Positions 1 to 64,000 of a stretch of DNA of 64,000 nucleotides are shown here, one piece after another. Position 1 is the stretch's first letter, and each line of letters starts with the position of its first letter. This DNA is from Eledone cirrhosa (Eukaryota): NCBI GenBank assembly GCA_964016885.1, contig OZ024764.1, positions 620,001-684,000 of the forward strand, given 5' to 3'. The notes beneath the pieces were generated by a model. It saw nothing but the letters and a program-made list of their open reading frames with translations. It was not told the origin of the DNA and did not search any database. The position numbers and the translations under genes were made by a program.

Positions 1-495
1 ATGACGATGCAAAATCCTGCAAATGCGGGATTGGATAACGGTCAGGCACAGTAATCGCGTTTAAGCGTCGGTAGTCACCCGTCGGTCTCCAATCACCAGA
101 AGATCTAGATACCATATGTAGAGGCGATGCCCAAGGACTTGTGGAGCGCCGAATTATTCCCAATTCCAGCATGTGGTCGAATTCAAGGCGTGCAGCTTTC
201 AACTTCATCTTCGAGGACGTGAGAAAACAGGTGGACCTGTAATGGATATGAAGTGTTCAATCGCATGATCCGGGCTAGTTATTTGTAACTTTCCCTGCGT
301 CAACTGAGGGAATGAATGTAACAGGCTTTGATACTGGTTGCCCACTTCAACCAAGAAAAAGGAAGGGCTGATAGTGGCGACGTCCGGCTCTGAACCCTCG
401 AAAGAAAGGCCTGTTTCAGCATCAAAAAGGCGTTGTCTGCGAATGTCCACCAACAAGGAAAAATGGTGGAGAAAATTCGCTCCCAAAATGGCGTA
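1..495 (-). mobile_element. Gypsy pol fragment (protease end to RT start); near-identical copy of 10391-10885
   Basis: [21 protein letters not shown] and ILGANFL motifs; matches 10391-10885 at offset 10390 with one mismatch seen (467 vs 10857). Confidence 0.95.
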
Positions 496-1494
496 CACAT
501 GTTTTTGGTCACTATTCAATAAAGGTTCCCTTTCTTCTACAAATTGTCGCTGTTCTTCTTTGCTGTATTGAAATTCATGCAATAACTCCAAATTGCCAAT
601 ATCCTGATTAGCGACAATATTATTTGGCCTTGGCAAGTTAAAGTCACTAAGACTTTTGCCCAGGTCGTTAAGTTTGTCTTCAAAATACAGAAGACATTGA
701 TCATAATGTCTCTCGCTAATCAAAAGGCTAGAGTTTCTTGTAGCTCTTTTTTCTATCGGAAGGTAATCCTCAGACAGCGAATTCTTAAATCGAGCCCATA
801 AAGCATTGGAATTGTCAATTTCCGTATTTGTGAGGAGCACGATGAATAGATCTCTCATGGCTTTGGGAAGCCTTGTTCGCTCAGCATCTTCCAGAGTCTG
901 CTGCCAATGTTCATCTGATTGAAGCAGACCTTTCTCTCTGCAAACGTCTTTGAATAATGGCAGGAGTTCTCCATCACACATTTTCAAAGAGTTGAAAGAT
1001 ACTGGTCCTTTGACGTGATGCAGAAGGAGTTTTAAATAATACAGGTCACCACTTCGTGGGGAAACAGTGTACACTCGTCCCAAAACGTTCGCCTCAAAAA
1101 TTCCTGGATACTGCTCAACTGTTTTCCCCACTTTCCTCCTTTCCCATCTCTTATTATTCCATGTGTAAAACTTTGGTACATCGGCATAATACAATGTTTT
1201 TGCAAACGGATCGCGAGTGCAAAGATCCATGAACTCAGTCAGAGTTGTCTTAGCCATGTTATTGTTTACTTTAACAGCAGCATTGACCCGAAAGAAGATT
1301 TGATTTTTCTCAGGTAGATGAACTTGAAGGCGAACTACGGTCGGTTCCCTCTCATGAATTGGAAATCCAAGTACCGAGGCAACAGCTTCTGAAGGACCGA
1401 TATATCTTCCTGTTAAATTCTGTGTTATCTCATCTTCCCTGTTCACTCCAAACATTGCTTGATCACTGCCCTTCATGGTATATTTTATAACGTA
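496..1494 (-). mobile_element. Helitron RepHel fragment A (end of Rep motif 3 to pre-helicase region)
   Basis: YVIKYTMKGSD, RYIGPSEA, VVRLQVHLP, LGRVYTVSP, YYLKLLLHHVKGP; ORF 205..1476 is a Helitron-Gypsy fusion. Confidence 0.93.
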
Positions 1495-4400
1495 CTAGCG
1501 GAGCTACCCGGCTTCGCTCAGTGTTAAAAAGCTTATTTTGAAAAGAATAATATTAACATTTTAATCGTTATTTAAAAACTTCTGTAATTTAGTTTCTATT
1601 TTTTAGATTTTAACATTTATCTTTAAATGACTGAATGACTGACGAATTTAAAGAAAATTCGTTATAAGAACATTTAATTTGTTTTACTGAAGTGCTTTTG
1701 GGTACACAATGTTTTTTGTTTTTCCTTCTGGTGCGTACACGAATAAATCAGAAGGTTTACCGACGCGTGAGCAAGCCACATACAGCTGTCCATGTGAGAA
1801 GCATAGATTTTCTAAATTTAGTCCACACTTGTAGCGATTGTCCTTGTGCTTTGTTGATAGTCATTGCAAAGGCGAGTCGCACCGGAAACTGCAAACGTTT
1901 GAAATCGAATGGCGTATCTGTTGGAATGATTGGGATGCGTGGCAAGAGTACATCTTCTCCTTTAAATTTTCCATTTAAAATTGTAGCCTCGATGATATTG
2001 TTCATCGTCTTATTCACTGAAAGTCTGGTACCGTTGCAAAGTTGTGGTGGATTGATATTTCGGAGAAGGATGATAGGCACGCCAATTTTCAATGTTAAAA
2101 TGTGCGGTGGCATGCCTGGCAAATCAAGTGAATTCAAGAATTCAATTGGATAATTGATAATTTTGTCTTGATTCATTACAGTATCGATGGACTTATACGT
2201 TGTCGCTTCGCCTGGTATTTCGTTTTGAATGCTGAAATTAATGGCATTGACATCGGTGTTTTTGGCTGCTAATATAGCACGTACACTGAGCCACTGATGA
2301 TTTTTGTAATGCTGCGCAATATTTGGGAACACTTTGTGAATCAGTTCGTCTCTGGTTGCCGTGATTCTACAGAAGTTTGTTGGCAATGTGATACATTTTG
2401 TGGAATCATCGATTACCATTTTTCCCATTCCCAATATCCAGCAATTGTTTTGTGAAACGTTCAGCGGATGCGTCATTTTGTAGTTGTACACGCATATTGT
2501 TTTTTAAAGTTAATTTCTGTACGTGTCGCCATAAAACTGATGATTTGAGACATGCATTAAGCTCATCAGCGGGTGTTGATCGCGGTATAACTGGTAGAGT
2601 TTGTCGAAAATCACCAGACAATAAAATGAGTGTGCCACCGAAGAGCTGTTCATTTCCTTTCAAATCTTTTAGCGTATTATTAAGCGCTTCCAATGATTTT
2701 TTGTGCGCCATAGTACATTCGTCCCATATAAGGATTTTACATGATTGGAGTACTTTACCTATACCAGAATTTTTGGTAATATTGCATGTTGATGTCTCAG
2801 CGATTTGCATATTCAATGGCAATTTCAGGGCTGAATGTGCTGTTCGGCCACCATCTAAAAGAGTTGCCGCAATTCCAGATGATGCGATTGCCAGTGCAAT
2901 ATTATTTTCTGATCGTATAGTTGCCAAAATAAGTGAAATGAGAAAAGTTTTGCCTGTACCACCGGGCGCATCTATAAAATAGAATCCGCCGCTTTGACTT
3001 ATAATTGCCTGCATAATTTGGTCATATACTATGCGTTGTTCTGGTAGCAATTTGGGAAGATTCGTTTGAACAAATGTACCCAATTCGGCGACATCAAAGT
3101 TTGTTTCTCGTTGCAAATCACGATCGAAAATGTCGTTTACAGATCGATTCGGCGCAGGCATTCCCAATTGTACCAGTGTTTTGTTAGCGATTGCTAAACA
3201 TATGACCTCAATGGAAACCAATGCTTCATTATACACATTTGGTGTGAATTGAATATTCATATTTTGATTTGTTGCACGCAAACGATGTAGGATGTCTTCA
3301 CTCATGTAGTCTTTATATTTTTCCCAAAGATCTTTTGGATTTGATGGGAAGCACGTTGTCAATATTATTGAGAATAATGTGCGTATTTGCTTTGGTCGAG
3401 CAGTATTCGATGCATCAGCGAGTGAAGTGTCCCAATGTCCATCATTTTCAAGAAGATTTAATTCTTGGCAAGCTTCACGATAAGTGGCACATACTTGACC
3501 GTTTACTGTTCTCAATTCTTGTCTCCAAAAACATGATGCTTGACAATGAAATCGATTAAAGATTTCAATTTTTGTTTGAACACACGCGCTGTAATATCAT
3601 GACGATCCGAAGATGATTGACCAGGTAACAGCGTCCGGCAGTGGTAGTAGTGATCCAGCACGATGATAAATTTGCCCTTGCACTTTGAATGTTGGCATGT
3701 AATTCTCGCGCACGATATTTGTTGCACCGAACGATGTCATTTGGAAACATGAATTGTACTTGCGTATGTTTGCCAAGAAATGTTTAGATTCGCTTGTGTC
3801 ACCTGATACTAACGTTGATAATGGTTCAGGTGGTGGATGGAATTCTGGCAATTTCACTTTTCCACCCGAGCAGCACTTTCCTGGTGTTTCATTTTTAAAT
3901 TTGAGGGCACCACAATACCCGCATAATTTATCCATTTTTCCAATAATCACATTTGGATGAAGACTGTAATCACAATTTGAATCGTAATGAAATGCACCAA
4001 GATTGAAATCATCGTGCAGTATTCTTCTTGTGAGAGCATTGCGTAGTCGATTCGTTTCCAATCTTGCTTCCCGTTGCTCGTCTGTTTCAGATGAACGGGC
4101 TTGAGCAGTTCTTACTCGAACGGTTTGCAATCTTGCTTCCCGTTGCTCGTCTGTTTCAGATGAACGGGCTTGAGCAGTTCTTACTCGAACGGTTTGCAAT
4201 CTTGCTTCCCGTTGCTCGTATGTTTCAGATGAACGGGCTTGAGCAGTTCTTACTCGAACGGTTTGCAATCTTGCTTCCCGTTGCTCGTATGTTTCAGATG
4301 AACGGGCTTGAGCAGTTCTTACTCGAACGGTTTGCAATCTTGCTTCCCGTTGCTCGTATGTTTCAGATGAACGGGCTTGAGCAGTTCTTACTCGAACGGT

Positions 4401-4538
4401 TTCCAATCGTGATTCCCGTTGCTCGTATGTTTCTGAAGCTCGTAATGCATATTTTTTCGTTGCTTGAGGGGTAGATTGACCAATCGCTCGTAGTAATATC
4501 AAATAGATTACTATATGTGTTTCTGGTCCAGTATTCAT
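1495..4538 (-). mobile_element. Helitron B with intact 3' end, PIF1 helicase, internally deleted Rep and STPR-like N-terminus
   Basis: Minus-strand 3' end GCGAAGCCGGGTAGCTCCG-CTAG|T (CTAG at 1495-1498); PIF1 motifs DAPGGTGKT, IWDECTM, GDFRQTLPV, FAMTINKAQGQS; zinc motif CGYCGALKF..CCSGG; sequence jumps near 3515 and 3660. Confidence 0.95.
4060..4440 (-). repeat. 69-bp (23-aa) coding tandem repeat, STPR-like, about 5.5 copies
   Basis: Unit SETYEQREARLQTVRVRTAQARS repeated in ORF 3597..4538. Confidence 0.9.
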
Positions 4539-4539
4539 T

Positions 4540-4716
4540 CTGAAATTCCAGTAGTGTTAGTCTAGCATGTGTAATAATATTAATGTCATCCAAAGTTAAG
4601 TTAGATCTATTTTTAGCAAATATCAAGGCTTTGTTCAGGAGTATAGGTGATATAGAAGAATAGTAATTATCTATATCAAATTGTAGAAATGAAGCAGAGG
4701 ATTTATATCTAATATA
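4540..4716 (-). mobile_element. Naiad-type PLE RT fragment (left flank of piggyBac)
   Basis: Translates FLQFDIDNYYSSISPILLNKALIFAKNRSNLT. Confidence 0.85.
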
Positions 4717-4720
4717 TTAA

Positions 4721-7279
4721 CCCTTTAGCATTCACATTGAATTGTCAAATGTCATGTTCATCTATTCGCATTATTTTCACTTAATTATACTCAAGAGGGT
4801 TATCAATTTTATTTGTTTGTAATTACTTTAATTTTCTATGTGCAGACTTGAAATTTTGTCAGTAGACGTTTAAAGAACTATAATTTACAATTATATATTT
4901 TTACCTGATTTTTTTTTGTTAAATTTGACTTTTATGGGCAGGTAAAATTAATTAACAGGTGTAAAAGTAATAACTTTATGGATAAACACAAAAATTTAAA
5001 CTTTATCTGCCTTACCTGTTAGATTTGTTGCAAAAAAATCCAATAATGATCTAGATGCTGATTTCCATCAATTCTAGCAGTTTTCCGAACAGGTGAATTA
5101 ATTAAAAATGCAGGTGTAATCAGTACAATGTTTTAGTCTTTCTCTACATTCCAGGCAAATATTTTCATTGAAAAAAATGTATAAAACCTTTTCACCAGTC
5201 AAAATAATATTGGCAATGTACTCTTACACAATGTACGGTGTAAAATTACGTAACAGAATGTTCCCAATATATAAGTTCATTAACAGGTGTGTCACAGGTG
5301 AATGCAGGTGTTTTTGTATATGTGTGCTAATATATTTTAAAAATAGTGTTTTCAATATTGTTAGACAATATTTCTATCGTGATACTGCCCAAAGCACCCT
5401 TTACATAAGGGCACTTTGCAAAAGGAACACATAAATAGGGTTTGGATTGCGTAACCTTTAACAGTTTTTCTCTTTTGCAAAGAGCACAATCGGCAAACCT
5501 TCCTCCTACCATCAATTCTCTCCACTTTATGAAAATCAATATTTTCTTTGTGGACCACTGCTAATTTTGATTTTTTTTTCCCAGCTTTGTGTTTGCGAGA
5601 AGTATATCCCCCACGTAGCTGGGATGCAATGTCCACGCGAAATTTCATGTGGCAGTAGTCCTTTGGTGGTGGCGGATCCTTGTGGCTTTTAGTAAATACA
5701 ATATAAGAATTCACAATGGTTAAATTCACTAAAAACCACAAGATGTATCTCCACCATTTCTTTCCAGGGCGTCCAACTGGGTAATACGCGCAATATTGGT
5801 CGGATTTGTCAACCCCACCCATATATTTATTGTAGGAGAGGTTAACTAAAGGTCTACCCTCAGCCCCAACACCTGGTTGTTGGTTAGAACTCAGGAACAA
5901 AATTTGCCGTTTGTCTTTGAACACTGCGGCTAACATGTTCTCTTTTTGCATTTGGAGAATGTCTCCTCTGTTTTTTAGTTTCGCAACTTTTATTTCTTGG
6001 GGTAGCCCTTTCCGATTGCTCATTATTGTGCCGCAGGTGTACGTATTTACAAGAGCAAGATCCTCTGCTAAAAGCACCGAAGAAAAAAAAACGGTCATAA
6101 TAAATGTGTCTGTGTTGAAAGTGGAAGGGTTGAGTCAGCGACCACACAACATCATAACCCAACCTGTGCTTTCTCTCTCCGTTAAGTTTTTTTCCTGTGT
6201 AAACATCAAAGTTTACACAGTATCCCGTGTCCGATTCACACTTCCCACACTTTGATGCCCCATTTGGTGGGTTTAGCTGGCATATACTGTCTGAAATGAA
6301 CCCTACCCTTATATCCAATCATAGCTTCATCAACACTAAGATTTTTTCCAGGTATATACATACTTTTAAATTTTTCCATCAACATTTCAATTAATGGTCG
6401 TACTTTGTACAGTGGGTCGTAATTCGATTCATTTCTACCAGGGGCATTTGTAGTATCAACCAGATGCAAATACTGGTTTAATTTTATAAATCTCGTTTTG
6501 GCCATAATACTAGATATATAAGGGTCACCAAACCTTATATCAGTACTCCAATAATTCCACAGTCGTGGAAATTGTTTAATACCAAACATAATGTTTATGG
6601 TAAAAAACGCTTTCATTTCGGCAGAATCTGTCGGACGCCATAAAAGATCGGGATTTGCTCGATTAGAAATCTGTTGTTGTGCATAGCGATTTGTCTCCTC
6701 TGCCACAACTTCGAAGAAAGTTTGTGGTAGAAATAAAAAAAAAATAATCCAGAGCTTTAGCATCGGGTGGTAATGTGTGTTGTGGTCCAGAATTTTCATT
6801 AAAATCCGAAACATGTATCGGTGTTGTTTCTTTCAACCACGTTGGTGTTTTTTCAATGGTGTCAGATATCTCTTCGCTTTCACTTTCAAAGTGACTATCA
6901 TCATCATCAGATATATCAGAAATAAATATATCTGATTCATTTGAAGATAAATCACTGATATTATCTTCTGTTTCTTTGTTATCTTGAATGTCGTATGATG
7001 TGAAACCTTCAAAATCGTTGTCGCTGCTTTCGGAAGCCATGTTACAATTTCAAAGTTAAAAACACGTGTTATCACAAGGTCTTTAACTATACTAAGAGTT
7101 AATTTTCGCGCGTAAGGGCTTTATCTCGCTGTAATCTCGAATTGACGAGATTTTGATGATGTCAATGTTTATTTTTAGAAGGATATCTACGAGTGGTCTG
7201 AAATGTCGGTTTTTGTCGGTTTGAATAAATGAAAGGGGACATAATTTTGTCGGTTTTTGTCGCTTTGAACGCTAAAGGG
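4721..7279 (-). mobile_element. Full-length piggyBac transposon (PGBD4-like transposase, frameshifted) with TTAA target-site duplication
   Basis: TTAA 4717-4720 + CCCTTTAGC ... GCTAAAGGG + TTAA 7280-7283; motifs SVDEAMI, KPTKWGIK, YYDRFF, YNKYMGGVDKSD and C-terminal Cys-rich domain; ORF pieces 6663-7040, 6236-6814, 5884-6318, 5361-6098; repeated ACAGGTG motifs at 4900-5310. Confidence 0.96.
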
Positions 7280-7283
7280 TTAA

Positions 7284-7480
7284 ACCACTCAATAACCTCA
7301 CCAGTTCCCTTCCACAAGTTTAAGTTAGGTAAACCATGTAAGTTTTTAACCTGCTGTATCACCCTGTCTAGAATGTTTTTGCTAAGTTTACCCAGGTCAG
7401 ATTTTCATGGTGCAATCAATCTGACTGGCAAATCATTTTCAAAATTTCTTTTGTGATCTTTCATATTGATCTTAGGTTTC
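7284..7480 (-). mobile_element. Naiad-type PLE RT fragment, related to 56285-56485
   Basis: KINMKDHKRNFENDLPVRLIAP ... LWKGTGEVIEWFN. Confidence 0.85.
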
Positions 7481-7994
7481 TTTTCTTTTAAGGCCCTAGA
7501 CACTCTAGGGAGTGATGAAAGTATTCTTAGCGTTTTGATATATTGATATCTGTTGTCTATTCTATACATGAACAATAATCATGTATGTGAGGGCAGGAAT
7601 ATTTATATTACGGCAGGATGGCACGGGTCCGCCACAGTTACAGGCTAAATTTCTACTAGTGCAGCCTAAATCACAGTACACGCTTTACATAAATACATTA
7701 CATCACAACTCATGCGCATACAGAGGTACAGATCAACAAGATATACGTCAGGATAGGTCCACCAATGCACTAATGGTGGGTAGGCCAGCGTTGATGGGTT
7801 ACATCCACTGTACCAAACAGGGGTGCTTATTAACATACACTCCCCTGCACACCCCAATATCAAGGTCAATATCCTCCCACAGGCATACGTATACATTCAC
7901 AGACTCGTATACATAGACGACCAACATTAGGAGACAGTTACACTCAGTCAGAGACAGTTACACAAGACAGCCCAACTGGAGGAATAAGGACGTG

Positions 7995-9213
7995 CTAGCT
8001 AACAGGTTTAAAGTAGAAGAAAGAGCTTAATATTCGGTGGGGGCAAGAGGAAAAAATTTCAGACTTTCTATTTAGTAGAGGGCATTTAGCAAATATAATA
8101 GAGTGGGATTCGGCAAGGCACAGGTTGCATACTCTACTATGAGGAGTATATGGATGGGATTTAGCAACCTGCCGCCAAGTAAGTGTGTAAGGTGTTCGTG
8201 CATTTTTTAAATTATGGACGTACGCTGCCAAGGAGGTGGAGTTCTTCAGTTTATTATGTCTAAAAGTGCATTGATGAGAGTTAAACCTGGTCTTAAAGGG
8301 GGTGGAAGTTGATCCTATATAGGTCATAGTGGACGCCGTAGTTACCACATCACACGCATAAACTATGTTTCTAACAAGGCAGAAACCATTCAGGGGGCAG
8401 CCCGAAGCCCTTCTACAGTTACAACCTCTGGTGATGCTATTCTCAGAAAGATCACCACCAGTGCTACTGCCCACTCTATCCACTACCGTGTTTTCCCCTA
8501 GGCTTAGGTTGTCCAGGCCTTCCTTTATTTTCTTATTATTAGTAATGGCCAGATGAGAGGCCAGATTTTGGGTTGTAGAATACGAAAGTTTAACAACATT
8601 CTTATTGAGGATAGAGTGGTACCTATTACCAGGAGGGAAGTTCCGTTCTAGCACAGAGAAGAAGGCCCTAGGAATATTTGTAGCCACTTCAGAATTAAAA
8701 GGGGGGTTGAAGTATGTATTCAATCTTCTTCTATTCTTTTTATTCTTTCTATTTCCATCAGTATTATTAGCATTATTATTTCTACGGTTCCTATGCTCAC
8801 CTAGTCTATGCGGGGAGCTGCGAGGCCCACCATTGCTATTACTTAGACTAATGGTGCCATGCTGGTTCATTCCACCGGCATCTAGAAACCTCCCGTTCAC
8901 GACACCTCTATTGTTATTACTTAGACTAATGGTGCCCTGCTGTTTCATTCCACCGGCATTTAGAACCCTCCCATTCGCGACACCTCGATTACCAATGGAC
9001 ATATTATGTGTTATAACAACACTGGTAGAGCTACTATTAGGACTATTATTTCCCTGGGTGTAATACAATTTGTCCCTAAAGCCGGATCTAGCTAAGGCGT
9101 CGTTATAGTAATCAGCCTGCGAGTCAAACGCCTCCTCACTATGTGAGAGTGAACTTATTCTATTAGATACGCCCTTCAGTATACCGCTGATGACAGACCT
9201 AGGGTGGTTGGAG
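7995..9213 (-). mobile_element. Naiad-type PLE thumb, linker and GIY-YIG endonuclease
   Basis: SNHP, YFNPPF, CNCRRASGCPLNGFCL, NIVYAC..TYIGST, FKTRFNSH, CNLCLAE, SSCPH. Confidence 0.92.
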
Positions 9214-9261
9214 TAAATGAAAGGGGACATAATTTTGTCGCTTTGAACGCTAAAGGGTTAA
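9214..9261 (-). mobile_element. Isolated copy of the piggyBac terminus plus TTAA
   Basis: Matches 7226-7283 minus one 10-bp GTTTTTGTCG unit. Confidence 0.92.
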
Positions 9262-9948
9262 ACCAGTTAATTACCTGGGATGTGTTTTCCCAGAGTGGTA
9301 AATTAACATGTTTTCTTATTTGTGGGATGACTCTATCTAAAATTTTTTTACTAATTATTCCAATATCAGATTTGGAAGGGCATATAAGTCTTATAGAAGG
9401 ATTATAGTTAAAGTTTGATTTATGATCTTTCAGGTTGAAGTGTGGTCTTTTCAATGCCAAAGATTCAGTTCTATCTTCAATATTAAGTCTATTCACTATG
9501 CTGTGTGTTTTGTTGTTGATGTTGGTAAGTGACGCATTATTTGATTTTCTATAATTTTTCCTGAGTTCTTTGTATATGAACTCATTGTAATTTTCAATAT
9601 CCATGTGATATAGATTTCCAGTTTTGTCCGAGTGGACATGGATTTTTTTAGATTTTTTTTAGGTCCTTTTGAAAGTTAGATTTATACCTCTTAAATTTGA
9701 GGTGTTTGATTAAATTAAAAATGTCTTTCTCAAAGTTTTCAAGTAGAGAGTTGTGTGGTGGAATTTTATATGTAGTGAAATCATAGATATTTCCTATCTG
9801 TACATTTTGATTTTTTATCGAAGTGGTAGGCCCTCCATCTGACTCTTCTGATAAATTGGTTGGTTTTTTGTATCATAAGAAGTAAGAAATCATCCTTAGA
9901 AGGTAATGGTATATTCTTTAAAGAAGTTCCCAAGTATTGTTTTTCCAT
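9262..9948 (-). mobile_element. Naiad-type PLE N-terminal/RT fragment (frameshifted)
   Basis: MEKQYLGTSLKNIP, RRVRWRAYHFD, SDKTGNLY, LKDHKSNF, PSKSDIGIISK. Confidence 0.92.
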
Positions 9949-10069
9949 TGTGATATGGATAATGGACAAGAAAAAGAGCTCAACTATTTGTATATGGAGT
10001 TATAAAGCCATACATACAGTGGCGGACATGAAAGTAAGAACACTTTTTATTTTGCATGGAAGCATTAAG

Positions 10070-12751
10070 ACTTGGAAGCATTAATACAAACATTATATCT
10101 CTGTAAACGACGAAATACGAGATCCAGATGCTTTGAATGCTGCTGAGGGGAAGAACTAGCAATCAACACGTCATCGATATACGTGTACACACAATCCAGG
10201 CCCCGAGTAATATCATCCATAAATCGTTGGAAGGTACTTGCAGCATTTCTAAGGCCGAAAGGCATAGTGAGGAAATCGAATGATCCGAAAGGAGTGGCAA
10301 TAGCAGTCTTTGGGATATCCTCCTTTTTAACCGGAATTTGATTATAAGCGCGGATCAAATCAAGCTTAGAAAAGATTCTGCAACCCTGCAATGACGATGC
10401 AAAATCCTGCAAATGCGGGATTGGATAACGGTCAGGCACAGTAATCGCGTTTAAGCGTCGGTAGTCACCCGTCGGTCTCCAATCACCAGAAGATCTAGAT
10501 ACCATATGTAGAGGCGATGCCCAAGGACTTGTGGAGCGCCGAATTATTCCCAATTCCAGCATGTGGTCGAATTCAAGGCGTGCAGCTTTCAACTTCATCT
10601 TCGAGGACGTGAGAAAACAGGTGGACCTGTAATGGATATGAAGTGTTCAATCGCATGATCCGGGCTAGTTATTTGTAACTTTCCCTGCGTCAACTGAGGG
10701 AATGAATGTAACAGGCTTTGATACTGGTTGCCCACTTCAACCAAGAAAAAGGAAGGGCTGATAGTGGCGACGTCCGGCTCTGAACCCTCGAAAGAAAGGC
10801 CTGTTTCAGCATCAAAAAGGCGTTGTCTGCGAATGTCCACCAACAAGGAAAAATGGGGGAGAAAATTCGCTCCCAAAATGGCGTATGGCAAGTCGGCGAT
10901 AGTAAACTTCCACTTCAAATTTTTTAACCGAAGAGGAAGCGAAATTTGCCCGTACGTTCGAATGGCCGTGTGGTTGACTGCTCGTAGATTTATATTTGAT
11001 TCAGCTGGGCTTTTTTTTTGAGATAACTGACTGGCCAAATACTCAGCGACGCCCCAGTATCGACAAGGAAACATTTTTTTGACCGCGGGTCGTATACGAA
11101 AAGATGGCGGTTCGGTCGGTTTTCCCAGAGTTCACTAGCCGCCCCTAGTGGCTCTGCTTTGCGTTTCCCGATCTCTTGTAATTACAGGGCGTGCGACAAC
11201 GTTGTGCCCTACTGCTGAAGTTAGCATGATACCAACACAACGAAGAATTATTGTTGTCTGCATCGTAGTGCTGGCGATGAATAGAGGACAGCGGCGAACG
11301 ATACCTCAAACGTTGAGAAGGCTCTCTGTGATGTACAGCCAAATCTTCTACCTTTTTGGTGAGAGCTTCAATCAACTCCAACAGTTTGCTGTCGGCCACA
11401 GAAGAATTGCGTGGGGGGACGCAAGCTGAAACCACATAAGGATTATGCTGATTGCTGTTCGAGTCCACCTCAAGTATTCTATCCGCGGACGCGGCAAGTT
11501 GCTCTAACGACTCCTTCTCCAAACTATTAACCAATATCCTTTGCGCACTTGGCGGTAGACGTGAGAAAAAAAGCTGCTTTATGAAGGGGGTGTCAATCTC
11601 CTGGGAGTCGCTCAAATCCCGCAAATGTCGAAAAATAGGAGCTCGGCTTCCTGTCACCTATTTGAGCATCGTCCAACAACTCCTGAAAATGGCTCTCTAC
11701 CGACTTGGTATTTCTGCGAAGAATTTCGTTTTTTAATGAGCCGTAGGTAACGTCGGGGTCCAAATCCGTCACAACGTCCTTCACCGAGAAAGCCAAGGAA
11801 ACAGGTAGGCCATTGATCAGGACCTTCAGCTTATGCTGTTCCTTTGTCTTGGTTAATTCAAAGAAACATTCCAGCTGCGCAAACCACAACTTGATGTCGC
11901 CTGCGAAGGACGGCAAATGATGTTGACTCATGGTGCCACGTATTTGATGAATTTTTGGTGTTGGTTACTAGTTAGCCAGGTGTTGCTGCTGATGGCTGGT
12001 ACGTGGTGGTATCCGTTTTGAAATACTGCTAAGTTTTTTTTCTTTAAAAAAAATATTCTAAAGAAAATTTGAATAATAAAAAAAATCATTTTCTATGAAA
12101 ATTAATGGTAAGAAAATCCAAGATGGCTGATTTAAAAATGTGTCCGTGATGAAGAAGCCGTCATGTGACACGATGCAGCCAATCAGATGGCTGGGATTGG
12201 AGAAGACAAGCTGAACGCGGGAAAACAAAATATCTGAGTCTCCATTTGTAATTTCCACAATGTTGAAAGCAAAATTCTATATCCAGAGAAATCCTTTTTT
12301 TTTTTTTTTGTGTTGTATTTTTGTGTTTGTCTGTATGTCTGCTTTAACAAATGGAATATTATGAATTTTATGGACTTACGCTAAGTGATTCGAACATTCC
12401 AAATGTTAAGCCATTCCACATTGCCGTTAAAACGAATGGCGAATTCAAATAGGCTGCGTTTTCATACTTAAACGTCGAGGGTCACCAATAAAGAAAATTA
12501 ATGTTTCTCTTTGTTGAATAAATAAATGAACAATCAAATCTAACGATCATTTTATTAAATGCGATAATTTATTAAATTTCCTACAACGTCAATATTTTGG
12601 GGAGCGAATCTTTCCACGTCTGTTCATGTCCGCGGTCCAAAGAGAGTGAGTGAACCTGCGTCTGTGACCGGATGTATTTTACCTCCGCTCTCTGAAGGGT
12701 TGTTAAGGGGAGGCAACTGCTAGTTGCCAAGCGACCATCTCAGCCACTACA
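10070..12751 (-). mobile_element. 5' half of a Gypsy LTR retrotransposon: LTR, PBS, gag, protease, RT (truncated, frameshifted)
   Basis: LTR starts TGTAGTGG at 12751; PBS TGGTGACCC-TCGACGT at 12472-12487 resembles the complement of the tRNA-Trp 3' end; gag LWFAQLE, CWYHANF..C..PC; [17 protein letters not shown]. Confidence 0.93.
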
Positions 12752-12903
12752 TATATATTGCCTGTACAGGTAATCAAAGTGTGTATACATTTTTCGAGGA
12801 CACTATATATATATATATATACCGGGGTCCCTAAAAATGTATACATCATTCTAATATATTGCCTGTACAGGTAATCAAAGTGTGTATACATTTTTCGGGG
12901 ACA

Positions 12904-12956
<53 letters not shown>

Positions 12957-13147: not shown

Positions 13148-13249
13148 TATACACAAATATGAACATATATATAGAGAGAAAGTGTGTGCAAGCAAGCAAA
13201 CATCGAGATCAGAGTTTTAGCAGTGGATAGATAATATACTTTCATCTAT

Positions 13250-40880: not shown

Positions 40881-40884
40881 AATA

Positions 40885-51389: not shown

Positions 51390-51617
51390 GTGAAAAAATA
51401 TATATATATCTTTTTAAAAAAATGTTTATATATATTAATAGATATATATATATTAATATATATATATAAATAAATATATATATATATGCAAAAGTTTTAT
51501 TTAAAATTGTTGGGTTACAACGAGTAAATATTTTATAACTGATATAAAGCACTCAACAAGTTTTGGAGTAGATATACGATATTAAACAAATGGAAACTAT
51601 ATTTATAAAACCATATT

Positions 51618-51683
51618 TATTTCATTATACATATTTCAGGGATACCATATTAAAAATATGGCATGCCTTCTTCAGATAAAATA
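51618..51683 (-). ncRNA. Hammerhead ribozyme in a diverged pLTR copy
   Basis: tattttat-CTGAAGA-long stem II-GAAA-tatgt-ATA-atgaaata. Confidence 0.7.
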
Positions 51684-52689: not shown

Positions 52690-53283
<594 letters not shown>

Positions 53284-53321
53284 ATTAAATAAATGGAAAA
53301 CTATATTTATAAAACCATATT

Positions 53322-53387
53322 TATTTCATTATATATATTTCGGGGATATCATATTAACAATATGCTATGCCTTCATCAGACAAAATA
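53322..53387 (-). ncRNA. Hammerhead ribozyme in the 3' pLTR of the Naiad at 54801-57006
   Basis: tattttgt-CTGATGA-stem II-GAAA-tatat-ATA-atgaaata; same sequence as 57187-57252. Confidence 0.75.
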
Positions 53388-54800
53388 CAATATAAACAGT
53401 TTTATAGATAAATAGATTCGACATACCGTAATAAACACCGACTTCATTTGAAGAGGTTTACGCTAGCAGTGAAAATTTTATACAGAGAGAAAGAAAGAGA
53501 AAAAAGAAAGAAAGACAAAACGAAGAAAAGGAAGAAAAAGAAAGAGAAGAAATGCATGGAACAAAATAGAGAGATGGAAAAATAGATAAAGCGAAGAGCT
53601 TCATGTAAAGAAACAGAAAGAGATATATATATATAGAGAGAGAGAGGAAATAGAGATAGATACATATATATATAGAAAATTAGGTAGTGGGAGGTCATTT
53701 TGAGTAAGTGTATCAATGATACATTTATTTATTTATTTAGCTCAAGTATTAATGTAAGGGAGATATATAGAGAGAGAAAAAAATAGCGAGAGAAAAAATT
53801 TAAAAATAGCCAGACATATTCGAGGCGTAGAAAACCCTATGTTTTAATGTATTAGTATTTATAAAACTTACACTATATTGTAAATATCAGTATTCCTGAA
53901 TGAAACAAGTATCATAATGTGTGAAAATTAATTATCTTATGTTTAGTTTTAAAAAATTCACATGTTTATGTGACAGCTACAAACATCCATGTGAATCCAA
54001 CTGATTCACTCTGCAAACTCTATGTTACCGGAAAACATTCTCAATGTGGTATAAAAATTTGAGCGTATTATTATTCCTGTCATTATTCTACAAGATTATC
54101 TATCAAGCAGAAATAGAGAGCAGATTTCAATATACTAATAAAAAATATATATTATATTATAAACAAAACTAAAAATAAAAAGATAACAATAATAATAATA
54201 AGTAAAAATATAGAATAGAAAACTAAAAAAAATATTACGAAAGAATATTACATAATAAAAATATTACATATTAAAAATACTACGTATTAAAAAATATTAC
54301 GTATTAAAAATTTACATATTAAAGATATTAAAAATAAAATAAACAATAAAAAAATAAAAAAATATTATAGAATACTACAATACTAAAAAATAAAAATAAA
54401 AATAAAAATAAAAATAAAAATAAACCACAAAGAACAACCCTTCAAAGTTAATTGACAATATATTGCCAAGTTCATTACAAGACAAAGCCAAAAATTATCT
54501 ATCAAATCACATCTAGCAAAGAACATTTCAAAAAGATTATGATGTCCAATTAGGTCTACATATGTTCTTATATTTAATATAGAAGTTTATCTAGTGTAAG
54601 GTTAATTCAAAAAATTTGGAGCATCGGCTTTTAGGGTAGCTTCATTTTTCATGAGGAATGTTTAGATAAAAATAAAAATAAAATAAAAATAAAAATAAAA
54701 ATAAACAATAAAAAAAAGAGTAAAAAGAGGGAATCAAAGATTTAGGAATCAAAAAATTTATCGGCTAGTTCACATATAAATATAAATCAAACTAAATATA

Positions 54801-57006
54801 CTACATTTTAAATTTAAATTTATATTTAAACGTTGAGTTTAATCTATGTTTGCAACAACTGAATAAATTTGTCCGTAGGTTAAGGGAATTTTTAGATTTT
54901 AGTATAAAGAATATCTCCTCTGCGCAGAGGTCACATGTCTCAGATGATGAATTAAAAGGAATCCCTCTTGAGACTATATTCCAAGCCGTCGAATATCTAA
55001 CGTTATCTAGCTTAAGTTGCCAGAGTACGCCTGATAGTGCCGTTGAAGATTTTTTACTTGGATCTGTGAAAGAATTCTTGTGGTTATTATAGCGAAGTTT
55101 AAATTCCGTCGATGTGGAACCGACGTAGTTAAAAGAATTAGAGTCAGTATTAACATTACAATTGTATACTATATTTTTAACTAAGCAGTTGTTATTTAAC
55201 GGACATTTAGATCTATCTCTACAGTTACATTTGTTAACTTGTATATTATTTATGCTATTATCAGTAGGTTTTAAGTTCCTATTATTTATTCTATTAATAT
55301 TTTGTGCTAAATTTTTGGTGGATGAGTAGGTCAATTTAATTGTATGCCTATTGAAGATTGAGTGATACCTATGTGTTCTAGGGAAGCGATTATCAAGAGC
55401 TTTGAAAAATAATTTAGCGATGTGGGTTTTAATGTTTAGTGAGAAAGGGGGGGGCAAACCAAATTATGTTCCTAGTTCTATTTCTTTTTTGTCCTTTGGA
55501 ATTATTGTAATGCTTTCTATTATAGTTGTTAATGTTGTTGCCGTAATTAAAAAAGTTGTTACTTTGTTTAGTTTGTCTATCATTATCTATGTACACAATC
55601 TTATCAGCATATCCTGCCCTAGCTAGTGCATCATTATAGTACTGGGCCTTTTCGTCAAAAATCTTTCTATTCAACGAAATCCTAGAGATACGTTTTTGGA
55701 CTGAGTTTACTATAGTGTTTTTGACAGATCTGGGGTGGTTAGAGTTAAAGTTGACATAGTTTAAGTTTTCATTCAACTTGTGAAAAGGATAGTGGAGACG
55801 TGTTGAGATTTAATGTTATATCTAGGAAATTGACTATTCTATGGTTGTTCTCAATTTCTATTTTAAGGTTAAAGTAATTAAAAAATTTTGTAATTTGTTT
55901 ACATTTTCTATTTAGTTCAGGGTTATTATTATTAATAAGTAAAAGCATGTCATCCCTATATAAACCTCCGGTAGTACCAGGTATTTTCCTATGTAGCGAA
56001 TTGATTAAAAATAAGCCCACAAGGTCAGTTACCTGAGCTGAGTCGGAAGATCCCATAGTTATGTCAAAATTGCTATCTCTATCTGCTCTGGTCCATAATT
56101 TGTCATTAAATTCTATCAAAGTTTTCCTAGCCGATAATATAATATGCATTTCTTTGCTAGTTAGGTCAGTATGTTTGAATGCGTAATTTAGTGCCTTATT
56201 TAGTAGACTAGGGGTAATAGAAGAATAATAGTTAGCTATATCAAGTTGAATAAACCTATTATTATTGTTATATTTAATTTGCCTAAACCACTCAACAACC
56301 TCTCCAGTTCCCTTCCACAAGCTCAGGTTAGATACACAATCCAAGTTCTTAATTTGCTGTATCACCCTGTCAAGAATGTTTTTGCTTAATTTGCCCAGGT
56401 CCGATTTTGAAGGTGCGATCAATCTAACTGGCAGGTCATTTTCAAAATTCCTCTTGTGGTCCTTCATATTGATCTTCGGTTTCCTGGGCACGAAAGGTTG
56501 TGTTCTGTTCTCAATTTCCAACTCGTGCATTATACAAGATGCTTCGACATTCATTTTCTCAAGTTCGGCCTTACCTTGTACTTTTTCCTCAGCTCTTTCA
56601 GTATGAGGCCATTATACATGTCTTTCCGCACTCCATAGAGGTTGTTGGTCTTGTCAGATTTCACCAAGATCTTCACAGTTTTCTCTAAGCTCTCAATGTT
56701 ATCCTTAATGCCTTTCAGATATTCCTGGCCTTTAAAGTTTCTCTTGAATTTGACCCCTTGTATGATAGAAATTATATCGTTTTCAAAGTCAGATAAAAGT
56801 TTGTTAGGGGGTGGATTTCTTTTAGATTTGAAAACTTTGTTTAAGTCCGAGATATTTTCGTCTGCATTAGATTTATCAAAGTGGAATGCACGCCACCTGA
56901 TTCTCCTTATAAAAGAGTCAGATTTATCTATTAATTGTTTTACAAAGTCTTTGTTTCTAGGTAGAGGTATGTCTTTTAGAGAGGAAGTAATCTTAAAGAA
57001 TTCCAT
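54801..57006 (-). mobile_element. Full-length Naiad-type PLE ORF (frameshifted); terminal-repeat copies at about 53280-53460 and 57050-57300
   Basis: SLKDIP, SDKT, QLDIANYYSSI, MGSSDSAQ, YRDD, CNCRDRSKCPLNNNCL, NYVGST, CDLC. Confidence 0.94.
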
Positions 57007-57053
57007 TTTTCCAGTTATAATATAAAGCGCTCAACAGTATTGGAGCAAGATAC

Positions 57054-57568
57054 ATGTAAAGTTATATTTAAAATTGTTGGGTTACAACTAGTAAATATTT
57101 ATAACTGATATAAAAGCACTTGACAAATATTTGGAGTATATTTACAATATTAAATAAATGGAAAACTATATTTATAAAACCATATTTATTTCATTATATA
57201 TATTTCGGGGATATCATATTAACAATATGCTATGCCTTCATCAGACAAAATACAATATAAACAGTTTTATAGATAAATAGATTCGACATACCGTAATAAA
57301 CCTCTTCAAATGAAGTCGGTGTTTATTACGGTATGTCGAATCTATTTATCTATAAAACTGTTTATATTGTATTTTGTCTGATGAAGGCATAGCATATTGT
57401 TAATATGATATCCCCGAAATATATATAATGAAATAAATATGGTTTTATAAATATAGTTTTCCATTTATTTAATATTGTAAATATACTCCAAATATTTGTT
57501 GAGTGCTTTTATATCAGTTATAAATATTTACTAGTTGTAACCCAACAATTTTAAATATAACTTTACAT
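57054..57568. repeat. Near-perfect inverted repeat with ~250-bp arms; each arm carries a hammerhead (minus 57187-57252, plus 57370-57435)
   Basis: Arms are reverse-complementary around the spacer CTCTTCAAATGAAGTCGGT (57302-57320). Confidence 0.95.
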
Positions 57569-57674
57569 ATATATACACACACACACGCACACGCACACAT
57601 ACATACATACACACACACACATACAAATATATATATATACGCATATATACACACATAAAACACATATACACACA

Positions 57675-57716
<42 letters not shown>

Positions 57717-57932
57717 TACATATACACACTTACAAACAAATGTATACACATACAAATAAATAGGTACTCAATAAATATACGCATATACGCAAGCACATAA
57801 AGACACCTCTACAGGCAGAAAATGTAGATACGAAAGAGGTACTCACATAACCATAGTGGCCGTATTTCAGGTTGAGGAGGAGTGGGGGTAGGGTGGGGAG
57901 GAGGTATAGGGGCCAATAGGGGGAGGTCGTTT

Positions 57933-58310
57933 TTAGCCATTGGGCTTTAACACTGGCTTAAAGTGTTTGAAAGTTGCAAAGTTCTTGTGCATGCAGTTCG
58001 GGCAGTGTTCAGAGAGTTTGTTCAGTAGCGGGCCCTTGGCGAATAAAATTTCGTAGCTCTCTGAAATACAAAGGTCGCAGCCCTTGTGTCCTCCGTTGTA
58101 AGAGCGCGCTTTCTGGAGTATTTTCCAATTAAGCGTGAAGGGGGTGGAGTTCCTTTTGAGGTCCCAAACGTAGGAGGCGAGTGTTGTCTGATTTGATTTA
58201 TCCGGTCTTCTGAAGGAGTGGGTATGGGCATACCAACGGGTCTTAAAGTTGTTGGAGGTCATGCCGATGTAAGTTTTTTTGCAATCCTCGGTGCCTGAGA
58301 TGACATCGCA
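57933..58310 (-). mobile_element. Naiad-type PLE GIY-YIG fragment
   Basis: IYKC..TYIGMT, FKTRWYAH, CDLCISE, CMH. Confidence 0.88.
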
Positions 58311-58330
58311 TTTGTATATATATATTAATA

Positions 58331-59262
58331 GTATTGAAATTTCCGTTGGAAACAGAAAAGGTCATAGAAATGAAGAGTGTTCTATGTAAGTATCAGAGCA
58401 AAATTTAATGTATAAAAATCAATACAATATAATTACCTCATTACCAGAGGTTTCCCGAATGAGGCGAATACGAAATAAACGACTTCATTCGTTCGTCAGA
58501 CGAGGCAATATAAAACATGGGTAAATACTTAGAAAAACTCAAGAAAATCAAAAAAAGATATAGATAAATGAAATAGAAATTGAAATATATAAAAATCTAT
58601 CAAGAAATATAGTTAGGTGTGTGTATATGTATGTATATACGCTCACAGATGTGCATATATGTATATGCGCACATGTATATGTATAGTGAGAAAGTGTGTG
58701 TAATTCTAAAATTTAGGGCAAATGTATCTATATGTCTGTAATCTACAGACAGAATAGTTACATCATAAATATATGAATATGAAGGCGCGCGCATAAAACG
58801 CCTGCACACTCGTACACTTAGATGCGGAAAGAAAGGAGGTAAGGGCGTGTAATAATTAAAAGAAAAGTATCAGTCTCGATATATTTATAAAAATATAATA
58901 AGGATAAATTAGAAAGAAAAAATTAAAGAAAACAAAAAAAGGGGGTACATACATACATACACAGACAAGCGTGTCTCACAAAAGAAATGTAAAAATAATT
59001 ATGCTTATATACACACGCGCACTTACACATCCATCCATACGTACACACACACACACACACTTATACTCACGCATATAAACCTGTTTGCATGCCCACGCAT
59101 GAAACTGAGTAAGTAAAAAAAAAGGAGGGGGGGGGGGAAAGAAAAAAGGAACAAAACATAAAACCGAGATGTCAAAAACACGGATATAAAGACACGTACA
59201 CATACGCATAATATATACATACACACACACACAAACACATGTACACACACACATATATATAT

Positions 59263-59308
<46 letters not shown>

Positions 59309-62090
59309 GCACGCGCGCGCACATACGTAGTCACTCATGTACATATATAAAAAGTATACACACATTAAGGCGTTCAGCCATATTGATACAGGGTGTAAAA
59401 AACTTGTGGGATAAATAAGTACAAATATAAAATTGTAAGATAGGCTGCGCAAAAATAAAATAAAAATAAAAATAAAAATGAAAAATATATCTGGATTGAA
59501 AAACACAAAAGACATGTGTAATCAGTTAGTGGAGGAAAAAGGGAAGTAAAAAATAGAAAGTGGATCGGAGAATAAAGGGGGGAGGGGATGTGAAGTAAAA
59601 ATAAATGAAATTATTGACAAGGATAAAAATGAAAGTAAGTCAGAAAGGGTAGTTAAAAAGAATAATAAGAGTTAATGGAGGATAAGTATCTGAAAGTGTG
59701 TTAAGTTTATATGAGCTGGAAAGCCGGTGTGATTTCATGTGTGGGCAACTGGTGAAAATTTCCATCTTTGTGTTCAGGCAGGTCTTTGGTGATTTTAGAT
59801 TTTGCAATATCCAAAATTTTTCATTTATGCAGAGCGTGCATTTTCTTGTTCCTCTAGCATATTCTTTAGATTGGTTCAAAATTGACTAATCTAGTTTATA
59901 TTGGATGCCTTGGTCTTTCAAATCCCAAATTCTGCTAGCCAGAGCTGTTGTAAATCTTTTTTCTGGATGTCGAAAGGATGCGACATGTGAGTAATAACGC
60001 GTTTTGAATCTGTCTTGCGTCATACCCACATATCGTTCACTGGTGGCTGGATGGTTGTTGCTGATGGTTGTCACTTTAGCCGCATATACAATGGCTTTGG
60101 TGTTGCATTTACCTTGTAATGGGCATTCACTTTTGATTCTACAGGAGCAAGTTTGATTTTCTCTAGGTGATATTTTGTTGAGGATATAGGACTTAATAGG
60201 GGGACCGCAGGAATAGCTAATTTTAACACAGTTTCTGTTAAAGATCTTATAGTATCTATGTGTTCTAGGGAAATGTTTATCTAGGAGTTCTAGGAATGTT
60301 TTGCCTACATTAGTTTTAACTGCTAGAGAGTAGGGGGGTGTGAACCAGATTATTTTTCTTTTCCTATTTTTATGTTTAATAGAGTTAGTGTAGTTAGGTA
60401 TGTATTTAATCGGTTCGCTAAAGCCGCTATTTTGGAGGGCTTTATTATAGTAGGGGGATGCCTTATTAAAAATAGCTTCTGAGGAAGAGAGGGTGGAGAT
60501 CCTACGGCTAATATTAGGGATAAGGTTTTTAAAAACTATAGGTGGATGGCAAGATCCTTTATTTATATATTTTAAGTTTTCATTAGGTTTATGGTATGGT
60601 TTATACGAAGCAGTAGGCAAATCTAGGTTTATATCTAGGAAATCTATGTTGGAAAGGTTAGTGTCAATAGTAATTTTAAGATTAAAACTAGCGAAGGTTT
60701 TTATTAAGTCTTTCCTTAATCTATCTAAGTTATGGCCTATGGTGGTATGGGAAAGTATTAGACCATCATCGCGATAAAGCCCAAAAATATGGTTAGGAAA
60801 TTTTTCTTTAAGTGTATGTAAGAGGAATAGGCCGACCAGATCACAAACCTCGGCACTGTCATAAGAGCCCATTGAGACATAGAATGGGTTCTCTGGGTTA
60901 GATATTTTTACCCAAGTGTCATTATCATTAAAAAGTAGAGTGTTCCTAGCATGCAAGATGACATTCTCTTCAATATCGGAGATATTAGTGAACCCTCTAG
61001 CGAAATTTAAAGCTTTCACTAAAAGGGTCTGAGTAATAGATGGGTAGAAATCTACAATGTCAAATTGGGTGAATCTAGAACTGATTTTGTTTTTAATATT
61101 ATTAAACCAATGTACTACGGAAGAGCTATTTATCCATTGGAATAATTTAGACTTACTTCTAATGTGTGTATTTAATTTATTTAAAATTTTTTTGCTGGCA
61201 AGACCAATATCAGTCTTAGCAGGGTTGATTAATCTACAACTAGGACGATTAATAAAGTCGGGTTTATGATCTTTAAGGGTGATATACGCAGAACGTTTAG
61301 CAAGTTTTCCTGTCCTATTATCTATTTTTAAAGAAACAGCTAATTCTTTAGCTTCCTTATTTATATTATGGTACGTATTTATATTAGCTATTTGGTATTT
61401 AGAGGTGATATTATCTATTAATAGTTGGTCGTGTAAATTATTATTAACTTCATATAGGTTTTTAGTTTTATCAGAGAAGATGAACTTATTAGAAGATTTG
61501 AAAGTAGAAATATCATTAGATAATTTAGATTGAAAGGGGTTAGAGTACTTACGAAAAATGATGTTGTTGATAAGGTTAACTAGGTCTAATTCAAAGGCGG
61601 TCATATCTTTTACTCTTTGCGGGTATTTGTGAGTTTTGATGTCAAAATATTCCGTAGAATCCGTGTTAAATTGTCCATCGAGAATCAAAGCTTTCCATCT
61701 CATTCTTTTAACAACCTTCTCTACTTTGTCTATCAGTATTTTCGTGTAGAGAGTGTTAGGTGTTGGGATATTCTTTACAGAGTAGTCCAAAGGGTATTTA
61801 TCCATGTTCGGTATTGGTTTAAAATCCTATAACTGAAGAGTGCTCGACTTTAAAAGGGCTGGAAGGTGCCAATCTCATAACGATGTAGAATATGCTGCGA
61901 TCATTCCCTTGGGAGCTTTATAAGTATTGAAATTTCCGTTGGAAACAGAAAAGGTCATAGAAATGAAGAGTGCTCTATGTCAGTATCAGAGCAAAATTTA
62001 ATGTATAAAAATCAATACAATATAATTACCTCATTACCAGAGGTTTCCCGAATGAGGCGAATACGAAATAAACGACTTCATTCGTTCGTC
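58331..62090 (-). mobile_element. Complete Naiad-type PLE insertion: near-intact ORF (59886-61805 plus frameshifted 59640-59879), direct terminal repeats and 8-bp TSD
   Basis: TATTAATA at 58323-58330 and 62091-62098; repeats about 58331-58498 and 61923-62090; SVKNIP, QFDIVDFYPSI, MGSYDSAE, YRDDG, CSCR..CPLQGKC, RYVGMT, CTLC. Confidence 0.95.
58436..58505 (-). ncRNA. Hammerhead ribozyme (CTGACGA variant) in the Naiad 3' repeat
   Basis: cctcgt-CTGACGA-acgaatga..tcattcgg-GAAACC-tct-GGTA-atgagg; the upstream copy is cut off within the core at 62090. Confidence 0.8.
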
Positions 62091-62764
62091 TATTAATATA
62101 TATATATATATATATTGTTATACTTGGGGAGGGTCATATTTGCGTAATATTGCCAGAATTAATAACAGAACACACTCACTGTTTGGTTGGTTTTCGCTTC
62201 TCGCTGTCTTTTATATCTGCGATCTAACTTACTCGGTCCTCAATGTTGCCATTGACTGACCGACGGTCAAAAATAATACAGATACAATATAGACACAAAC
62301 ACATATATATAGTTTACATAATTTACATAAATCTTTCGTTGCACATCTGCAACATCGTCACTGGTGTTATATTTTTTTCCTCCTGTTGTGTTGTATGTCT
62401 ACGCCATTTTTTTATTCAGTCTGTCTATATATTTATTTATTTATTTGCTTGTTTGTTTATTTTATTTTGTCTTCTTTGCGCATGCGTTTGCGTGTGTGTA
62501 TAGTGTTATGTGTGCTGTGTGTATAGTGTTGTGTCTGTTGTGTGACTAGTGTTTGTTTATGTGCTTGTTGTTATTGTGCTTGTGTATGTATTTATTTATC
62601 TTATTTTATTTTATTTACTTATTTATACTTCTCTTAGGTCAGTGTTGTTTGTTTGGGTGTTGTTCCACTCATTCTTTCTGTTTAGCTTTGGTCTTCTAAT
62701 TTCTATTTCACTGGCCTCTCTGATTTGCCTATCTGCTGGGTCATTCCTATGTTTAGATATTATT

Positions 62765-64000
62765 CTAATTTCTATGTTGTCTAGCATGTTCGTATAGTAC
62801 TGACCCGTTTTTTCGTCCTTTTAGTTCCCCCAAGTGTTGGTCTATCCTTTCACCTATGCTACGAGCTGTCTCACCTATGTATGTTGTTGTCATGTTTCTG
62901 CAAGTACCCTCTGTACATCTTATGCTATAGACTACGTTTCTAGTTTTACAGTTTATCCGGGGGTTCACCTTACATATGATACATTTCCTATTGGTACAGT
63001 GGGTTTTCTTAAAAGGGTAGGTTTTGCTGATCAGGGATTTTATGGTGGTTCCTGGCTTTTCTACCACCTTTATTTTTAAGTGGGTCTTTCTCAGGGCCTT
63101 TCTACACTGGTTAGCTAATTTCCCTCCAGGGGTGCCGTCCACAAACATGACACTCTGATATCTCTGGTTGTCGTACCATGATGTGGCCTTCCCTATCTTA
63201 TGTCTAGCCCTATCTAAGCTATTCCATGATTTGCTCCTGTATAGTGGGCAAATTCCTTTCATGTCCAGTTCTATGAGGGTCTTATACTTTTCCATGGCTC
63301 CTTCGTATACTCTGACTCTGTCTCTTTGGTTGTAGCCAGAGAACTGCATGCGGTTGATGAAGTGTTGGATGTGTCTTTCCATTTCTGTTGGGTCGCACAT
63401 GCTGGACACATTCTTCATCACTCGTACCAAATCTGCGATCAGAATATTAAACTTAGCACTACTGGACATTGCTGAGTTTTTGAGTATCAGGTATTTGGAG
63501 GCCATAGGTTTAGCATAGTGTGAGTGGAGAATTTGGGCTCTCTCGTCTATAGTGTTAATCCAGAGTTCTGTGTCTAATACAGGTAGTCTATTGTTAGGGT
63601 GTTTGGAAGGGAAGTCGATAGTTACAGTTATACTCTGGTGTATGGAATTAGCTATCTGCTGGATGCTTTCCATCGTGCTACGTTCTAAATCAAACTTGTT
63701 AGTGCTCTCTAGTGGGGGTGTTCTTATAACTATATTGATATCGTCTACATAACGAGAGTACATGATGAGGTCTATGGAGCTTTCATTAGGGAGATCTTTA
63801 AGTCTCCTTTCCCACCTACCATGAAAAGGTTGGCAACATCACAAGCTATGCTGACGCCGATGGCTTTTCCCTCATTTTGGGTGTAGATTTTCTCATTGAA
63901 CTTGAATATGTGGCTCTTTAGGGTAGTTTTGATACTAGCCCCTATTGCATGTGCGACCATTTTTCTTACCTGATCAGTGTTTTGGGGGGTCCGTATAGCT
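62765..64000 (-). mobile_element. Non-Naiad PLE RT, thumb and GIY-YIG (continues beyond the window)
   Basis: AIGVSIA..ANLFM, YSRYVDDI, LPVLD, CxxxxCxxC linker, NVVYSIRC..TYIGETAR. Confidence 0.88.

Follow-up and report, generated by a model that had tools for sequence, protein, structure and literature searches.

Probable trimming by deletions of nested transposable elements in a co-oriented block of about 160 kb in Eledone cirrhosa, a likely unistrand piRNA cluster

The window, i.e. the whole 64-kb stretch analyzed here (positions 620,001-684,000 of a 29.4-Mb contig in a genome of 3.0 Gb), is best read as nested insertions of transposable elements (TEs) trimmed by ordinary end-joining deletions, inside a co-oriented block of about 160 kb which is likely a unistrand piRNA cluster. 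A probability of about 0.7 is assigned to this reading. TEs would have inserted into one another and would have been cut down by ordinary end-joining deletions. Most element ends would have been removed in this way, and target site duplications (TSDs) would be missing because one end of the element was deleted. A preliminary description had proposed that microhomology-mediated deletion compacts nested insertions. The anatomy fits this proposal, but microhomology is a genome-wide signature, one third of the junctions are blunt and one TSD is intact.

Junction-centered stretches were searched against the genome and dispersed copies were aligned across each junction to find both parents. About 26 of the 64 kb (492-12751, 16232-20130 and 36055-45921) were resolved in detail and gave 34 fragments; these stretches do not include 21000-26000 or the greater part of 20131-36054 and 46700-63763. 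The family letters are our own, and the labels Penelope-like (PLE), RTE and Tx1 were partly assigned by motif. The window is a TE mosaic as described before, and all junctions named for it are present in the assembly, several of them 20-30 bp away from the positions first given. These fragments have 68 ends, of which a hand count gives 57 as broken, 9 as natural and 2 as unclear. Only one of the 34 fragments is a whole element. Among the natural ends which survive are the CTAG of a Helitron, inserted between A and T, the LTR ends of Gypsy in two cases and a terminus flanked by TA. Around their guests, the hosts Helitron A, PLE-C and Helitron C are collinear.

In the left part, an in-frame fusion of Helitron and Gypsy with a 5-bp overlap had been described at 491-495. 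The fusion of Helitron A and Gypsy-1 is in frame (429-aa stop-to-stop frame, 208-1494, minus strand), with an overlap of 4 bp (CGTA, 492-495). As assembled, the join marks where one unit of a tandem triplication meets the next; the unit measures 10,390-10,391 bp and the triplication about 31 kb in all. Two copies precede the window and the third occupies 492-10885; the assembled copies are 4 SNPs and 2 small indels apart (~99.95% identical). The Helitron A fragment (492-1494, minus strand), whose own 5' region is found at ~12751-13256, is followed on the same strand by Helitron B (1495-4491), which retains a natural 3' end (CTAG, at an A|T site) and lost its 5' end at 4491 (1-bp overlap). The Helitron jumps placed earlier near 3515, 3660 and 42400 exist at slightly different positions: the first two are blunt internal deletions of Helitron B (985 bp at 3521/3522 and 851 bp at 3630/3631), and the third is a deletion of Helitron C at 42407-42408 with a 2-bp overlap (GT).

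Next to Helitron B, again on the minus strand, the left half of PLE-B (4491-4720) ends at a TTAA target duplication. A full-length piggyBac follows (4717-7284, minus strand, flanked by TTAA on either side, with 98-99% identity to dispersed copies), and then the right half of PLE-D (7281-7607, minus strand), an internal 1.6-kb piece of PLE-A which is cut at both ends (7608-9215, minus strand, 99.5% identical to dispersed copies) and a terminal piggyBac remnant (9214-9262, minus strand) with a 2-bp overlap on its left and the TTAA target duplication on its right. At the junction of this piggyBac end with the PLE (9214-9215), the exact overlap is TA (2 bp) within a longer imperfect match of 8/10. 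The right half of PLE-B (9259-10016, minus strand) complements the half at 4491-4720. PLE-B runs uninterrupted in all 11 dispersed copies compared; here it is split by piggyBac, with TTAA at 4717-4720 and 9259-9262. A 53-bp terminal remnant at a TA (10017-10069), whose parent was not found and which by its motif we take to be Tc1/mariner-like, is followed by the Gypsy-1 fragment (10070-12751, minus strand) with a natural LTR end at 12751. That the junctions lack TSDs, as claimed before, was too strong a statement, since the TTAA duplication (4717-4720, 9259-9262) and the Helitron, LTR and TA ends survive. Two distinct Penelope-like families each carry a piggyBac insertion at homologous TTAA sites (7281-7284 and 9259-9262). 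The idea that this piggyBac targets a Penelope site was rejected, as dispersed piggyBac copies have unrelated flanks.

The TTAA target in PLE-D has its two halves at 7281 and, 61 kb downstream, at window coordinate 68297, where the left half of PLE-D ends at the same TTAA beside a second piggyBac. Both PLE-D halves are 97-99% identical to most of five dispersed copies. The segment 7281-9215 was probably copied between the two piggyBac copies 61-64 kb apart, as the arrangement of the halves suggests. The first piggyBac would have been broken close to its end; the broken end would have invaded the second and copied out through PLE-D and PLE-A, and copying would have ended by rejoining at the 2-bp microhomology at 9214. 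A PLE-A donor was sought near 68-72 kb and was not found there.

In the middle part, collinear pieces of PLE-C (16232-20130, minus strand) are the host of three guests on the same strand, namely Gypsy-2 (17114-18012), an RTE-type LINE (18012-19027) and pieces of Gypsy-4 (19153-19963). The passage from Gypsy to PLE reported at about 17090 was recovered, in frame, at 17114-17116 (AAT, 3 bp). Gypsy-4 retains part of an LTR together with gag, arranged as in the parents, and only about 64 bases of the host are lost. A circular permutation of Gypsy-4 was rejected, because the piece in question is the LTR.

The stretch 36055-45921 holds no natural end and is a run of doubly cut pieces. It begins with an internal fragment of Gypsy-3 (36055-36621, minus strand), which joins at 36616 in an imperfect match of 5/6 to a 69-bp piece of Helitron C (36616-36684, minus strand). 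This piece and 40886-42979 are collinear, about 2 kb of the element between them being lost. Between Helitron C and the following LINE lies a templated-insertion scar (36685-36713), in which pieces of both ends are repeated and of which ATGG is present in both parents. The ORF1 region of an L1/Tx1-type LINE (36706-37720, minus strand) has a 300-bp deletion at 37021/37022 and includes a second ORF1 piece at 37270-37720. The junction at about 36690-36715 had been taken for an unknown ORF joined directly to Gypsy. This does not hold, as the 69-bp Helitron piece (36616-36684) lies between and the ORF belongs to the LINE; the repeat noticed at 36690-36715 is present as an 11-mer and is part of the templated insertion. 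Judged by its relatives, the ORF is LINE ORF1, because in dispersed copies it is followed by a frame which, from its motif, we take to be of the endonuclease type, and a related copy carries zf-RVT. A breakpoint common to the two ORF1 copies in the block was rejected, as the upstream copy continues like the parents.

Two mariner fragments (37726-38783, minus strand) are joined at AT (38371-38372) and meet the PLE bluntly at 38783/38784. The mariner-to-mariner junction exists as described, 2 bp of overlap being found at 38371-38372 instead of at about 38346. At the latter position, mariner A has probably lost about 17 bp internally (647 window bases versus 663-664 in the parents). PLE-F (38784-40887, minus strand) is cut at both ends and overlaps Helitron C by 2 bp; this Helitron-to-PLE junction, expected at about 40885, was found at 40886-40887 (AA, imperfect match of 5/6). 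Helitron C and Helitron D (40886-45921, minus strand) are joined by AAAT (42976-42979), and Helitron D has a deletion at 44850-44854 (CTGCT).

Overlaps were scored with both parents for 18 truncation junctions (17 by script and 1 by eye), of which two have 4 mismatches near the join and are uncertain. The set excludes natural-end junctions, the templated insertion, PLE-D 7481, LINE 37270 and the internal joins of Gypsy-4, as well as the junctions at 10070, 17682, 36055, 45921 and 46103, for which one parent only was available. The exact overlaps were 4, 0, 0, 1, 0, 1, 3, 0, 1, 0, 1, 2, 0, 2, 2, 4, 5 and 2 bp. With both parents aligned, the overlaps are longer than chance, the mean being 1.56 versus 0.71 when these sequences are joined at random (P = 0.00125). 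Overlaps of at least 2 bp were found in 8/18 junctions versus 17% expected (P = 0.006), and 6/18 were blunt. The same scoring was applied to 40 deletions of at least 30 bp in dispersed copies, a few of which were called against no more than two partner copies, so that an insertion in the partners could explain them instead; here the mean was 1.68, with 18/40 overlaps of at least 2 bp and 12/40 blunt. Window junctions and controls did not differ (Mann-Whitney P = 0.81 for all 40; P = 0.96 for the 18 controls of at least 150 bp). Since dispersed deletions have the same overlap spectrum, the microhomology is genome-wide and not special to this locus. A templated insertion copied from the flanks, which is an end-joining scar, was found in one clear case (36685-36713). 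The main claim of the preliminary description is closed by this ordinary junction mechanism.

Chimeric ORFs had been said to be often in frame. Of 13 junctions flanked by coding frames on either side, 2 are in frame by best frame, and 4 more have a weaker matching frame (at most 6/13), versus 4.3 by chance at 1 in 3. An excess of in-frame joins, as expected of selected chimeric genes, was not found. In-frame fusions would be by-products of co-orientation and would lie antisense to a plus-strand transcript. Lost pieces with GT..AG ends were not seen in the three deletions checked (0/3), and splicing as the cause of the Helitron jumps, or retrocopied spliced RNA, was rejected on this basis.

In the flanks of dispersed copies, 92 breaks were counted in 427.8 kb (0.215 per kb), versus about 1.1 breaks per kb in the window (hand count). 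The nearest-neighbor divergence is 0.027 for the window copies, which are older, and 0.017 for dispersed copies. The window thus has a break excess of 5-fold raw, which was scaled to about 2-3-fold because its copies are older; this is a rough estimate, as the controls are top matches and insertions are counted on both sides. When the count is restricted to the three youngest families, the window has 4 breaks in 7.2 kb and the dispersed copies have 20 in 116 kb. The suggestion that the locus is a library of short family samples rests on the one-strand orientation and this rough 2-5-fold excess, not on junction chemistry. An all-class unistrand piRNA cluster which is actively compacting, i.e. 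with breaks arising at several times the rate of equally old dispersed copies and with segments copied between homologous elements inside it, is a tentative idea which we lean against. If it were true, each family would be reduced to a short antisense sample and more families would fit into one precursor RNA.

A Pfam scan of 65 window frames gave domains of Helitron, piggyBac type, mariner, DDE_1, Gypsy RT and gag, LINE endonuclease and GIY-YIG, and all frames with a domain are on the minus strand. Window coding bases matching a TE protein library numbered 30,409 on the minus and 228 on the plus strand. From -60 to +125 kb around the window, the numbers were 77,434 and 2,104 (62 vs 4 segments), and eight 50-kb control windows held 11,287 vs 11,461 bases per strand (13 vs 14 segments); individual control windows with few segments are sometimes one-sided (8:0, 0:3), and a comparison of density favors the window, as the library was drawn from dispersed copies of the window's own families. 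The co-oriented block reaches from about 38 kb upstream to about 124 kb from the window start (about 60 kb past the window end), on the minus strand, and spans about 160 kb. It is bounded by satellite arrays and lies 0.6-0.75 Mb from the contig end. Helitron, piggyBac, mariner, ISXO2-type, Gypsy, LINE, PLE and a viral insertion share the common strand. A TE-dense block in one orientation, as is used to recognize unistrand piRNA clusters, is therefore present. Judged by this arrangement, the co-oriented all-class block of about 160 kb is a likely candidate for a unistrand piRNA cluster, which would be transcribed from the plus strand. Selection may keep those insertions which are antisense to such a transcript. 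The left edge of the block, near an ISXO2-like fragment, is a candidate promoter region.

Several further features were observed in the block and its surroundings. The ISXO2-like transposase fragment, which we take to be Merlin-type, is close to the left edge and adjoins the satellite array. A parvovirus-like insertion (Parvo_NS1 and PLA2-like frames) is located about 27.6-25.6 kb upstream of the window, on the strand of the block's TEs. At window coordinates 88-116 kb, pieces of L1/Tx1-type LINE form tandem duplications with periods of about 7.65 kb and about 1.72 kb (98-99% identical). Downstream of the window and beside a Helitron, a 428-aa minus-strand frame has a weak match to Peptidase_C48 (E = 0.0056, below the cut-off). 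Inverted arms of 252 bp, 99% complementary, adjoin a Penelope-like element at 57050-57572, with partial copies at 51.5 and 53.3 kb. Minisatellites inside the block are found at 28094-28466 (32 bp, 11.7 copies) and 29023-30647 (31 bp, 52.5 copies). A Gypsy-derived piece at 46103-46617 is 95-98% identical to many dispersed copies, and plus-strand open frames without Pfam matches are present there (46168-47058). The retroelement-like region 31000-34000 is GC-rich (48-58%) with a strong G skew, in contrast to its AT-rich surroundings.

Under the trimming reading many deletions are needed, since only 9 of 68 ends are natural and none of them lies in 36055-45921. The doubly cut run in 36055-45921 would be explained more cheaply by direct capture, in which breaks are patched with TE pieces (DNA or cDNA) or a reverse transcriptase switches from one TE RNA to another, so that pieces arrive already cut and co-oriented. 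The 57 broken ends, the loss of only about 64 host bases around Gypsy-4 in PLE-C and the segment 7281-9215, which does look copied in, agree with such a process. We nevertheless consider it improbable: natural ends at canonical targets and an intact TSD survive, hosts are collinear, Gypsy-4 keeps its LTR and gag as a decayed whole element would, the three deletions checked lack GT..AG ends, and the overlap spectrum is that of ordinary deletions. Quite improbable, too, is a gene-free subtelomeric dump of TEs without silencing function, whose co-orientation would stem from insertion bias or local duplication. Although the block's distance of 0.6-0.75 Mb from the contig end, its position between satellite arrays and several tandem duplications would suit it, all classes and even the viral insertion are on one strand, and most families were acquired independently and not through duplication. 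To our knowledge, there is no insertion bias common to the mechanisms of Helitron, piggyBac, mariner, ISXO2-type, Gypsy, LINE, PLE and viruses.

Errors of the assembly, either in the junctions or in the triplication, are very improbable, even though the near identity of the three triplicated copies (~99.95%) might point to them. Assemblers join on long overlaps and not on 0-5 bp, so joins of this kind are an unlikely product of an assembler. Three copies, told apart by SNPs, all have the junctions at 3521, 3630, 4491 and 9214, and the overlap spectrum equals that of dispersed deletions. In other contig sets and reads (four sets for 35800-46200; three sets and RAD reads for 3440-3720), the sequences followed intact parents, and none among the matches listed bridged the junctions of these two regions; as contigs drop rare forms, this outcome speaks neither for nor against the junctions.

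On the reading of trimmed nested insertions, the block offers a precisely placed candidate for a master locus which would silence TEs of all classes in a repeat-rich animal genome of 3 Gb. Its unique junctions would allow small-RNA reads to be mapped unambiguously. The history, resolved to the base, makes a prediction of the trap model testable, namely that clusters turn over by faster deletion and not by a different kind of deletion.

The deletions may have been made by polymerase theta-type repair. In C. elegans, deletions made by this polymerase where transposons or Cas9 cut the DNA measure about 7-13 bp, and short homology together with templated inserts is described as its signature (main text of PMC4490562). 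The window resembles this repair in its short homology above chance and its occasional flank-templated insert, but its deletions span tens to thousands of bases; those of C. elegans are far smaller, and polymerase theta is therefore a guess here. Common piRNA clusters of Drosophila are enriched for deletions of unchanged size (PMC10197564, in whose main text the word 'microhomology' does not occur). The block is similar in that its deletions are of the same kind as those outside, as in the trap model of that source; the block is described from a single assembly. A literature search, mostly outside subscription journals, listed nothing on the anatomy of cephalopod clusters or on microhomology at cluster junctions.

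As far as the main texts of PMC10643416 and PMC10495008 go, flamenco-like clusters of Drosophila have a strand bias driven only by Gypsy elements (PMC10643416), hold 17-41 full-length elements (PMC10495008) and, outside the melanogaster subgroup, span 227-1,085 kb. The block shares with them a long gene-free run of TE fragments in one orientation and local duplications. It differs in the shared orientation of all classes across about 160 kb and in having a whole element as only 1 of its 34 resolved fragments. The strand bias is not limited to Gypsy, as it would be in a strict flamenco-like cluster, since Helitron, piggyBac, mariner, LINE, PLE and ISXO2-type elements are co-oriented as well. 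Among molluscs, for which PIWI pathway genes are reported, the piRNA clusters of Lymnaea and Crassostrea are enriched for young, low-divergence TEs of mixed classes, according to the main text of PMC6128900, from which the word 'strand' is absent. In its young TEs and its mixture of classes, the block of E. cirrhosa is like these molluscan clusters.
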